From: Chitinophagales bacterium
GTDB taxonomy: Bacteria; Bacteroidota; Bacteroidia; Chitinophagales; LD1
NCBI GenBank assembly: GCA_026129525.1
Contig: JAHCHW010000010.1
Span: 68,840 to 132,839 of the forward strand
Length of the DNA: 64,000 nt
Direction of reading: 5' to 3'
The stretch's first letter is position 1, and every line of letters starts with the position of its first letter. A program made the position numbers and the translations under genes. Of this stretch, positions 34,060 through 34,495 are shown piece by piece. The notes beneath the pieces are model-generated. The model was not told the origin of the DNA. It did no database searches and saw only the letters and a program-made list of their open reading frames with translations.

Positions 34060-34117
34060 AAACAAAAAATCCCGCTATTGCGGGATTAGTAGCAAGGGGG
34101 GCTCGAATCCCCGACCT
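34060..34117. repeat. Direct repeat copy 1 (terminator hairpin plus tRNA acceptor-3'/T-arm sequence)
   Basis: 34060-34093 is identical to 34392-34425 (34 nt). It continues with 1 substitution, a 2-nt indel, then 16 identical nt (ctcgaatccccgacct). Confidence 0.9.
34063..34086 (-). terminator. Intrinsic terminator (copy 1)
   Basis: Minus strand reads ATCCCGC-AATA-GCGGGAT (7-bp stem, 4-nt loop) followed by TTTTTTG. Confidence 0.6.
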
Positions 34118-34153
34118 TCCCGCAGTATTGCGGGACGCTCTAACCGCTTTGCA
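34090..34153 (-). pseudogene. tRNA-derived remnant or tRNA-like element
   Basis: Retains GGTTAGAGCG (D loop/stem), variable loop AGGTC, a T arm with a 2-nt deletion, and acceptor 3' strand CCTTGCT. The anticodon arm is replaced by the 7-bp/4-nt-loop hairpin TCCCGCA-ATAC-TGCGGGA. The 5' part is overlapped by the end of the GIY-YIG ORF. Confidence 0.5.
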
Positions 34154-34391
34154 CCAGCCACTCAATGTAGCGCCTGCTCTTTTTATGTTTGATTTCCCGT
34201 TCCCGTTTCATTGCATCAGAGCGTGTAGCGAATTGTTGTGTGTAAACAACCCGCCAGTCGGAAGCGGTTGCAGAGGTATAACGTGTTTGTCCGGAGTTAT
34301 GTTCCTCAATTCTGCGCGTTAAATTATCGGTATGCCCCACGTAGTATTTGTCGGATTGCTTAGAATAGAGTATGTAAACGGTGTAAGCCAT
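34140..34391 (-). CDS. Small GIY-YIG nuclease family protein
   Basis: 83 aa from ATG 34391: MAYTVYILYS..KYYVGHTDNLTRRIEEHN...REREIKHKKSR, showing the GIY/YIG, Arg, Glu and Asn motifs of the UPF0213/YhbQ-like family. The track's TTG start at 34397 lies within the T-run of the upstream terminator. Confidence 0.8.
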   Translation of the reverse strand: MAYTVYILYSKQSDKYYVGHTDNLTRRIEEHNSGQTRYTSATASDWRVVYTQQFATRSDAMKREREIKHKKSRRYIEWLVQSG

Positions 34392-34451
34392 AAACAAAAA
34401 ATCCCGCTATTGCGGGATTAGTAGCGAGGGGGGAGCTCGAATCCCCGACCT
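34392..34451. repeat. Direct repeat copy 2 (terminator hairpin plus 3' part of tRNA-Met)
   Basis: See copy 1. The offset is 332-334 bp. Confidence 0.9.
34396..34418 (-). terminator. Intrinsic terminator after tRNA-Met (copy 2)
   Basis: Same ATCCCGC-AATA-GCGGGAT hairpin plus T6. The GIY-YIG ATG follows within about 5 nt of the T-run. Confidence 0.6.
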
Positions 34452-34495
34452 CAGCATTATGAGTGCTGCGCTCTAACCAGCTGAGCTACCTCGCC
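34422..34495 (-). tRNA. tRNA-Met (anticodon CAU; elongator Met or lysidine-modified Ile2 cannot be told apart)
   Basis: Hand fold: acceptor GGCGAGG/CCTCGCT (G1-U72), D arm GCTC-AGCTGGTTA-GAGC, anticodon arm CAGCA-CTCATAA-TGCTG, variable AGGTC, T arm GGGGA-TTCGAGC-TCCCC, discriminator A. CCA is not encoded. Confidence 0.85.

Follow-up and report, generated by a model that had tools for sequence, protein, structure and literature searches.

A minimal GIY-YIG nuclease cassette linked to tRNA genes and hairpin-substituted tRNA copies in Bacteroidota and other phyla

What is a gene for an 83-amino-acid GIY-YIG nuclease doing between a functional tRNA gene and a partial copy of the same tRNA? The question is raised by a locus in a 64-kilobase (kb) stretch of DNA from a metagenome-assembled genome of the Chitinophagales, here called the window. 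Read on the minus strand, the locus runs from a tRNA-Met(CAU) gene through a terminator-like hairpin, the nuclease open reading frame (ORF), and the partial tRNA copy to a second terminator-like hairpin. This order of elements, together with the repeats and the ORF boundaries, had been described in an original prediction from the letters of the sequence, and all of it was confirmed by ARAGORN, Rfam, ORF, and repeat analyses. The prediction had further proposed that tRNA genes carry along a small GIY-YIG cassette, the end of which is derived from a tRNA. A survey of related loci, described below, found the same association of nuclease gene, tRNA gene, and altered tRNA copy in a family that spans several phyla.

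A family of nuclease cassettes beside tRNA genes

A protein-similarity scan that took one genome per species yielded 80 loci, referred to by L labels. The hosts belong to the phyla Bacteroidota, Ignavibacteriota, Cloacimonadota, Fibrobacterota, and Chlorobiota, and cultured isolates are among them, including Euzebyella saccharophila 7SM30 (L048), Mucilaginibacter achroorhodeus MJ1a (L019), Salinimicrobium sediminis CGMCC 1.12641 (L040), Flavobacterium succinicans DD5b (L081), and Marinigracilibium pacificum KN852 (L047). Linkage to tRNA genes was counted over the 65 loci with usable upstream sequence. ARAGORN identified a tRNA upstream on the same strand in 56 of these, at a median distance of 40 nucleotides (nt), and a truncated tRNA in 4 more, which bears out the proposal of a cassette riding on tRNA genes. 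Nine types of tRNA are involved, namely, Val(TAC), Asp(GTC), Ala(GGC), Met(CAU), Arg(TCT), Lys(TTT), Pro(TGG), Pro(CGG), and Thr(CGT). At the family loci a copy of the cognate tRNA follows 3' of each ORF, with an arm replaced by a hairpin, and the tRNA-derived end proposed for the unit in the window thus holds across the family. The stop codon of the ORF is either the tRNA's own TAG, within GGTTAG or GTAGCTCAG, or lies inside the hairpin loop. Some tails have two or three arms replaced (L012 and L071). The breakpoints fall repeatedly at the junctions of the cloverleaf arms, namely, at tRNA positions 26/27, 43/44, and about 53/54.

The ORF is not confined to single copies, as each locus has one to five ORF hits, full or partial. 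Arrays with 2 to 5 hits, partial ones included, occur at 23 loci, with at most three full-length ORFs and a tandem period of about 350 nt, and truncated ORF copies are also present among the loci. In a neighbor-joining tree, which with 83 residues is only indicative, the ORFs cluster largely by tRNA type across phyla, apart from a few apparent switches. A possible tendency of the tails to be more conserved than the ORFs within arrays was small and inconsistent and was not used. Assembled contigs often stop within the tRNA or the cassette or shortly past it (L170, L172, L174 to L176, and many of L003 to L082), as expected of repeats, which interrupt short-read assemblies. Among the tails, some are called by ARAGORN as odd tRNAs (Lys, Ala, Ile, and one with a 4-nt anticodon). 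At L081, three identical tRNA genes with a 111-nt period and a fourth, weaker tRNA hit lie at positions 2991 to 3410 on the minus strand, opposite to and just downstream of a Pro-type cassette.

The family is apparently undescribed. No Rfam family was found at gathering thresholds for the pseudo-tRNA units of 20 loci, and no NCBIfam model matched the protein above its cutoff, the model for group I intron endonucleases reaching 20.1 bits against a cutoff of 56. A full-text literature search and a 2006 survey of the superfamily (PMC1564403), which together leave most subscription journals uncovered, contained no tRNA-linked minimal GIY-YIG proteins, hairpin-substituted pseudo-tRNAs, or arrays of them.

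The hairpin, the upstream units, and the cassette in the window

The hairpin that takes the place of a tRNA arm has the form TCCCG...CGGGA. Of 92 full-length ORFs, 66 have an exact match between -40 and +110 nt relative to the stop codon, against a background of 1 per 358 kb of unrelated DNA from related bacteria. It is therefore not a generic terminator, an alternative that had been raised along with the original prediction. The hairpin replaces positions 27 to 43 exactly in the Met, Pro, Val, Arg, Lys, and Thr types, and in the Asp type it lies in the T arm. The sequence of its five outer stem pairs is conserved from phylum to phylum. Among distinct hairpins, 64 of 69 (93%) have a Watson-Crick pair at stem position 6 and 56 of 63 (89%) at position 7, and each of these two pairs occurs in four types; given this covariation, the stem of 7 base pairs (bp) is under selection for pairing. 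Exceptions of the G:T and A:C kinds are equally rare, their counts being too small and too balanced to separate RNA from DNA. Pairs of hairpins from one locus share the same variable interior in 32% of cases, versus 0.2% for pairs taken from different loci, which shows concerted evolution within loci.

Hairpin units without an ORF also precede the functional tRNA, in 20 of 59 informative loci and in 28 of 80 overall. They are tandem repeats of 73 to 117 nt, in each of which a short A/T-rich spacer is joined to tRNA positions 1 to about 53 and the hairpin substitutes for the anticodon arm, and they break off at the start of the T loop. Three such units are found at L004, which is syntenic with the window, six at L021, at least four at L068, and three in the Euzebyella isolate (L048). 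The two upstream units of L071 are full length, fold into cloverleaves, and score 47 to 50 bits against the Rfam tRNA model, and over the loci outside the window the units that score as tRNA do so at 29 to 50 bits. Five ORF-less tail units of 132 nt each lie at positions 1725 to 2385 of L039, and the three ORF-less units of L048, of 117 nt each, lie at positions 1990 to 2340. These long ORF-less arrays look like nonautonomous derivatives of the cassette.

An alignment of the window with L004, L174, L170, and L177, the last being an allele that lacks the cassette, revealed a common promoter-like block followed by GGCGAGG. This motif is the start of the tRNA in L177 and the start of the first hairpin unit in L004, whereas in the window decayed sequence and then a conserved GTTCTTTAA spacer come after it. 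The general layout is a promoter, n upstream units, the tRNA, an optional terminator, m repeats of ORF plus tail, and a terminator. Type III toxin-antitoxin (TA) systems have tandem RNA repeats ahead of the toxin gene and a terminator between them; upstream repeats are present in 20 of 59 informative loci, but with the functional tRNA interposed, and the window has a decayed unit only.

The ORF starts 0 to 7 nt after the T-run of a terminator-like hairpin in 56 of 96 cases, and in the Pro and Thr types its ATG lies 0 to 5 nt past the last base of the tRNA. Starts this close to a T-run or a tRNA end leave no room for a promoter, as had been remarked for the ORF in the window. The simplest reading of this anatomy is that the ORF would be cotranscribed with the tRNA and attenuated by the terminator where one is present. 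When a tRNA has no encoded CCA, endonucleolytic 3' processing by RNase Z would leave a leaderless or nearly leaderless mRNA.

In terms of this layout, the window contains one decayed upstream unit (n) and a single ORF-tail repeat (m = 1). Its features are listed in Table 1. The -7 promoter consensus of Bacteroidetes is TAnnTTTG, and TATATTTG is promoter-like and a candidate promoter on this basis. The orphan GGCGAGG occupies the same place as the tRNA start in the empty allele L177 and is the beginning of a decayed upstream pseudo-tRNA unit, and the spacer GTTCTTTAA...AAAATAT is homologous to the inter-unit spacers of L004, L174, and L170. The tRNA-Met sequence has no differences from that of L177. 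The ATG of the ORF lies immediately 3' of TTTTTTGTTT, and its stop is the TAG within GGTTAG of the tail D loop. Compared with tRNA-Met, the tail has its anticodon arm of 17 nt replaced by TCCCGCAATACTGCGGGA, one substitution, and a 2-nt deletion in the T-stem/acceptor region.

Table 1. Features of the nuclease cassette and its leader in the window
Feature	Position	Strand	Basis or remark
Promoter-like TATATTTG (34567-34560)	34560..34567	-	Matches TAnnTTTG; kept in occupied and empty alleles (alignment)
Orphan GGCGAGG, copy of the tRNA-Met 5' acceptor strand	34542..34548	-	Alignment with empty and occupied alleles
Leader, 46 nt: rest of decayed upstream unit, plus spacer GTTCTTTAA...AAAATAT	34496..34541	-	Alignment
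Functional tRNA-Met(CAU)	34421..34495	-	ARAGORN; Rfam tRNA, 67.9 bits
Terminator-like hairpin AATCCCGCAATAGCGGGATT, then TTTTTTGTTT; direct repeat copy 1	34392..34419	-	Repeat and hairpin analysis
GIY-YIG ORF, 83 amino acids, Slx1/UPF0213 type; ATG at 34391, TAG at 34140	34140..34391	-	
3' pseudo-tRNA tail, 57 nt	34089..34145	-	Copy of tRNA-Met from D-loop GGTTAG to discriminator base
Family-defining hairpin TCCCGCAATACTGCGGGA, 7-bp stem, 4-nt loop	34118..34135	.	Fills tRNA positions 27-43 exactly
Second terminator-like hairpin plus T-run, identical copy; marks unit end	34060..34087	-	

The direct repeat that brackets the ORF (34060-34101 and 34392-34433) is 42 nt long with 1 mismatch, its first 34 nt being identical. 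After a 2-nt register shift it is followed by a 22-nt repeat pair (34096-34117 and 34430-34451), and CGCTCTAACC is common to 34136-34145 and 34469-34478. The sequence TCCCGCNNNNGCGGGA was observed twice versus 0.09 expected by chance. As predicted, the TCCCG...CGGGA hairpin occurs three times within the cassette, at 34070, 34118, and 34402, and the rest of the 64 kb holds one match only, which is unrelated and has a long loop. This inverted repeat, at 45966-45994 (TCCCGAAGGGATGAATTTCGATTTCGGGA), has a loop of 13 to 15 nt and no tRNA-like context. There is no second ORF copy within the window; a 17-nt match had hinted at a decayed one downstream of the tail, and this candidate was dropped when neither blastn nor a maximally sensitive hmmsearch gave a signal.

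Two structural parts of the original prediction did not hold. A tRNA-like 3' structure had been expected of the window tail, but ARAGORN made no tRNA call there, the Rfam tRNA model had no match at an E value of ≤10 (34089-34165), and the fold is no better than that of shuffled sequence (z = -0.9), the 7-bp hairpin being its only robust part. Nor did any Rfam family match the window tail or hairpin at an E value of ≤10. A compensatory change at acceptor pair 4:69 had also been proposed as a feature, but it is not conserved, and the 5' acceptor strand is missing altogether from the other tails of the Met type.

Elsewhere in the window, a perfect palindrome, GAATCCTTCGGATTC, occurs at 33783-33797 and again at 33831-33845, spaced 48 nt apart. 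These are its only two copies in the window, and they lie in the 335-nt noncoding stretch between the cassette and a converging gene at 31434-33725.

The nuclease protein and the history of its locus

The protein belongs to the GIY-YIG superfamily and, within it, to the Slx1/UPF0213 clade. It matches the Pfam family GIY-YIG (PF01541) with an E value of 5.4e-17 and 62.3 bits against a cutoff of 22.6. Residues Y9, Y17, G19, R27, H31, and E64 are invariant in 28 sequences, and we take the invariant Tyr, Tyr, Arg, His, and Glu to be the catalytic residues by mapping to I-TevI and UvrC. A search of the PDB with a profile of 28 homologs gave BH0048 (1zg2) at 1.5e-13 and EF2693 (1ywl) at 4.3e-12, followed by Slx1. 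The AlphaFold model of the 83-residue protein has a pLDDT of 89.4, and its top Foldseek neighbors are BH0048 (1zg2), the nuclease domains of Slx1, and plant HIGLE. The E values were 1.5e-5 to 1e-2 for UPF0213/Slx1 and about 1 to 2 only for I-TevI and UvrC. Profile and structural neighbors of this kind, and a length of only 83 residues, identify it as a bare catalytic domain of the structure-specific Slx1/UPF0213 clade with no DNA-binding module. We infer that the protein is a nuclease, and its possible substrates are discussed below.

The family is large, with 5,283 clusters at 50% identity (E ≤ 1e-10). Values of dN/dS between tandem copies and between orthologs range from 0.05 to 0.38, indicating purifying selection, and the proteins are therefore kept functional. 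Database proteins P0212 to P0216, of 125 to 214 amino acids, match the profile twice; they probably represent tandem copies of the cassette that gene callers, or the loss of a stop codon, have joined into one.

The history of the cassette could be followed at its own locus. A ribH-MBL-tRNA-Met neighborhood, in which MBL denotes a gene for a protein of the metallo-β-lactamase fold, is common to the window, L004, L005, L008, and closer relatives, and a protein-database search with the MBL protein gave both occupied and empty relatives. The occupied alleles are the window, L170, L004, L005, and L008. In L170, the MBL protein of which is 92% identical, the ORF lies 2 nt after the tRNA with no intervening terminator. 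Three relatives have the tRNA-Met without the cassette, which answers the call in the original prediction for empty sites. In L177 the tRNA is followed by an ordinary terminator. In L178, with an identical MBL protein, a tyrosine-integrase element comes directly after the tRNA, and so the same tRNA is also used by an integrating element; the integrase gene itself, at 3877-5235, lies about 100 nt past the tRNA-Met. In L171, with an MBL protein 87% identical, the tRNA-Met (3858-3932) and the promoter block are inverted relative to the MBL gene. No GIY-YIG signal was found at an E value of ≤1 in L177, L178, or L171. Empty, inverted, and occupied alleles are interspersed in a tree of the MBL proteins.

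A metagenome scan with the MBL protein was uninformative on empty sites, since none of its 80 hits exceeded 67% identity and, of the 66 loci with sufficient downstream sequence, 65 had no tRNA behind the gene. The MBL-fold gene of the window lies at 34585-35424, and the precomputed Pfam list of its orthologs has Lactamase_B and a weak match to PF23023 (Anti-Pycsar Apyc1), for which the shared MBL fold may be the sole cause.

Known systems and possible explanations

Several known systems resemble the cassette in part. The T4 nuclease SegB, a GIY-YIG enzyme encoded in a tRNA cluster, drives homing and segmental amplification (PMC2330249, PMC13096335). The likeness lies in a GIY-YIG gene among tRNA genes, with no intron or intein, and in nuclease-driven gene conversion of flanking DNA with tandem amplification, which for the cassette is proposed. 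SegB differs in being of the I-TevI type, with DNA-binding modules, and phage-borne, whereas the cassette is chromosomal and encodes the 83-residue Slx1/UPF0213 domain only; hairpin-substituted pseudo-tRNAs accompany the cassette but are not known from SegB. The I-TevI-type architecture of a catalytic domain, a linker, and a C-terminal DNA-binding domain is absent from the 83-residue protein. Polymorphism for presence and absence at a conserved site, as for I-TevI-type homing endonucleases, is seen at ribH-MBL-tRNA-Met. The UPF0213 proteins (BH0048 [1zg2], EF2693 [1ywl], and Escherichia coli YhbQ), Slx1, and HIGLE share the fold, the minimal domain, and the catalytic residues with the cassette protein. 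Slx1 differs in needing Slx4 and in having a RING/PHD domain. To our knowledge, stand-alone UPF0213/Slx1-like proteins are encoded by single-copy genes with no assigned role and no reported tRNA linkage, in contrast to the tRNA-linked paralog lineages with cis repeats described here.

Type III TA systems such as ToxIN, with their order of RNA-coding tandem repeats, a terminator, and a promoterless nuclease ORF, resemble the cassette in part. Their toxins are endoribonucleases of the ToxN type and their repeats, of 34 to 45 nt, are unrelated to tRNA, whereas the cassette has tRNA-derived repeats, a functional tRNA in the array, a nearly universal repeat downstream of the ORF, and an enzyme of a DNase family. 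A toxin of the ToxN, CptN, or TenpN type was ruled out, the protein being GIY-YIG and the matches to PADLOC defense models weak and partial only. Elements that integrate at tRNA genes by a tyrosine integrase also reside at a tRNA gene, the 3' part of which they duplicate while an intact tRNA is preserved. In contrast, the cassette is 330 to 350 bp long, copies the tRNA into the D arm, and has a hairpin-substituted arm, and it lacks an integrase; the window cassette has no integrase or other gene beyond the 83-residue ORF, and an integrase was found only in the empty allele L178. The mascRNA of MALAT1 and engineered tRNA scaffolds resemble the tails in having a tRNA-shaped 3' element or an anticodon arm replaced by a stem-loop. 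These are eukaryotic or artificial, and they differ from the cassette, in which many units have no acceptor stem. The protein, which has no DNA-binding domain, falls outside the I-TevI-type homing endonucleases; it is also no type III toxin and does not belong to an integrase element.

The explanation that we favor, at a probability of roughly 0.4, is that of a selfish nuclease cassette that persists and spreads by recombination and is expressed by read-through from the tRNA promoter. An Slx1-like nuclease would be made at a low level from transcripts that initiate at the tRNA promoter and either continue past the terminator or, for the Pro and Thr types, yield a nearly leaderless mRNA when cut off the 3' end of the tRNA. 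It would act on hairpin or branched DNA within the tRNA-like repeats. Breaks at the bases of the cloverleaf arms would be followed by gene conversion and unequal exchange between repeated tRNA segments, and the outcome of repair would be repeats homogenized within a locus, arrays that expand and contract, ORF-less derivatives, and breakpoints at arm junctions. Where the same tRNA gene also exists as an empty allele, that allele could receive a copy of the whole cassette. The TCCCG...CGGGA hairpin would be a conserved cis site, bound by the protein or insensitive to it, and may also stop the extra tRNA copies from acting as tRNAs. In favor of this reading are the tRNA linkage, the cognate tails, the enrichment and covariation of the hairpin, concerted evolution, arrays and truncated copies, recurrent breakpoints, the interspersed alleles at one locus, the invariant residues and low dN/dS of a protein close to UPF0213 and Slx1, the positions of the start codons, and the contig breaks, and T4 SegB provides a precedent. 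We infer both that the unit is selfish and that it targets tRNA genes, as first suggested for the window; the unit proves to be larger than first described, since it includes the upstream pseudo-tRNA units.

Two locus pairs bear on movement. L071 and L077 match at 96% identity starting from tRNA-Pro position 27, and their upstream DNA is unrelated; the tRNA of L077 is cut at about 2420 (2419 in L071), at the boundary of the D stem and anticodon stem, which could be a real rearrangement or an assembly chimera. The best case for mobility is the other pair, L051 and L052, in which the similarity, at 95% identity, is confined to the cassette and the downstream flanks are unrelated. That this is the best case is among the observations that weigh against a spreading element. 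No near-identical cassette was found in unrelated contexts among the loci, and no recent transfer was seen. A tblastn search gave no match in plasmid or phage collections, and 2.9 million viral contigs contained one relative, at a contig end. Protein P0048, present on seven contigs, was set aside as evidence for mobility, as all seven represent one locus. At the locus of the window, ORF divergence roughly tracks MBL divergence. Together with the interspersed alleles this would fit an old cassette with repeated losses and rearrangements, with no sign of a recent gain. The 83-residue protein has no DNA-binding domain for sequence specificity. The functional tRNA is identical in occupied and empty alleles, with no protective polymorphism, and a tRNA-directed cut would therefore also hit the carrier. 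The hairpin hugs the stop codon, which often overlaps it, and this hints at a role at the RNA level. Purifying selection is ambiguous, being equally expected of an addiction module or a host function.

The main rival, possible if rather less probable than a selfish cassette, is that the unit is an RNA-protein module. A hairpin RNA on a tRNA scaffold, made in excess from the tRNA promoter and transcribed both upstream and downstream of the ORF, would bind the nuclease as an antitoxin-like inhibitor or as a cofactor or regulator, and the unit would persist by addiction and not by movement. Long vertical inheritance, purifying selection, and the lack of a vector are all as expected, and in most lineages the hairpin lies within the ribosome footprint of the stop codon. 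The exact replacement of positions 27 to 43 in six tRNA types keeps the geometry of the scaffold, and some units are full cloverleaves that still score as tRNA in Rfam, but most upstream units have no T loop and no 3' acceptor strand and thus could form no scaffold, and the window tail is no more stable than shuffled sequence. Tandem ORF-less hairpin units followed by a terminator and then the ORF would suit such a module, yet two thirds of the loci have no upstream units. Conservation of the outer five stem pairs across phyla would be expected of a protein-binding site, but G:U is not in excess over A:C in the stems. A reported fusion between a Slx1-like domain of prokaryotes and a tRNA Gm18 methyltransferase hints at work on RNA (PMC1564403), whereas the closest structures are DNA nucleases and no GIY-YIG enzyme is known to act on RNA. 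A domesticated host function and the remains of an integrase element fit less well than either the selfish or the RNA-partner reading. We consider it unlikely that a structure-specific nuclease maintains or protects highly transcribed tRNA genes, with the pseudo-tRNA repeats as by-products or decoys. It might, for example, process stalled forks or interfere with integrases that use anticodon and T loops as attachment cores; the hairpins stand at the anticodon arm and T loop, sublocations that tRNA-targeting integrases use, and an integrase element directly follows the tRNA in the empty allele L178, but the conserved sequence of the hairpin is left without explanation. The age of the protein matches that of the host lineages and it is under purifying selection, yet the distribution is patchy, copies are truncated or decaying, and close relatives have clean empty alleles. 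Yeast Slx1 maintains the copy number of tandem rDNA (PMC1564403), but a diffusible enzyme needs no gene beside its site, and here several paralogous copies are present per locus. Least credible, and already disfavored, is that the direct repeats of the tRNA 3' end are the attL and attR sites of a lost integrase element and the ORF a leftover passenger. Such repeats do flank the ORF, and tRNA-Met is a real integration site in L178. Against this, no integrase is near any cassette, the units are only about 330 to 350 bp long, the tail keeps D-arm sequence 5' of the hairpin, unlike an attachment site, and one ORF family with its hairpin is found at nine tRNA types.

Cutting across the selfish and RNA-partner readings is the doubtful suggestion that the cassettes form a new class of genetic element, a mobile unit or a ribonucleoprotein with a mechanism that has no described counterpart, present in thousands of genomes of the Fibrobacterota-Chlorobiota-Bacteroidota (FCB) group. 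A mobile unit of this class might carry a replacement tRNA and insert into the anticodon arm of a tRNA gene, with the hairpin at its ends. In a ribonucleoprotein, the tRNA-scaffold hairpin might partner the minimal Slx1-like nuclease as an antitoxin, regulator, or targeting RNA. The same doubt attaches to the two versions taken together.

For those who work with these genomes, there is a practical side in that assemblies are interrupted at tRNA loci by the repeats, and some of the units are annotated as odd tRNAs by tRNA finders. For the nuclease superfamily, in which minimal stand-alone Slx1-like proteins are common, a large branch of these proteins is tied to a fixed partner, a tRNA gene with hairpin-bearing pseudo-tRNAs, and this partnership offers candidate substrates in the TCCCG hairpin and in tRNA-gene DNA at the junctions of the arms. 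In a selfish cassette, a nuclease gene would occupy an essential and universally conserved target without an intron or intein by duplicating that target. If the hairpin RNA is the partner, it would be a natural tRNA-scaffold RNA, and the cassette would be a new kind of addiction or regulatory module.

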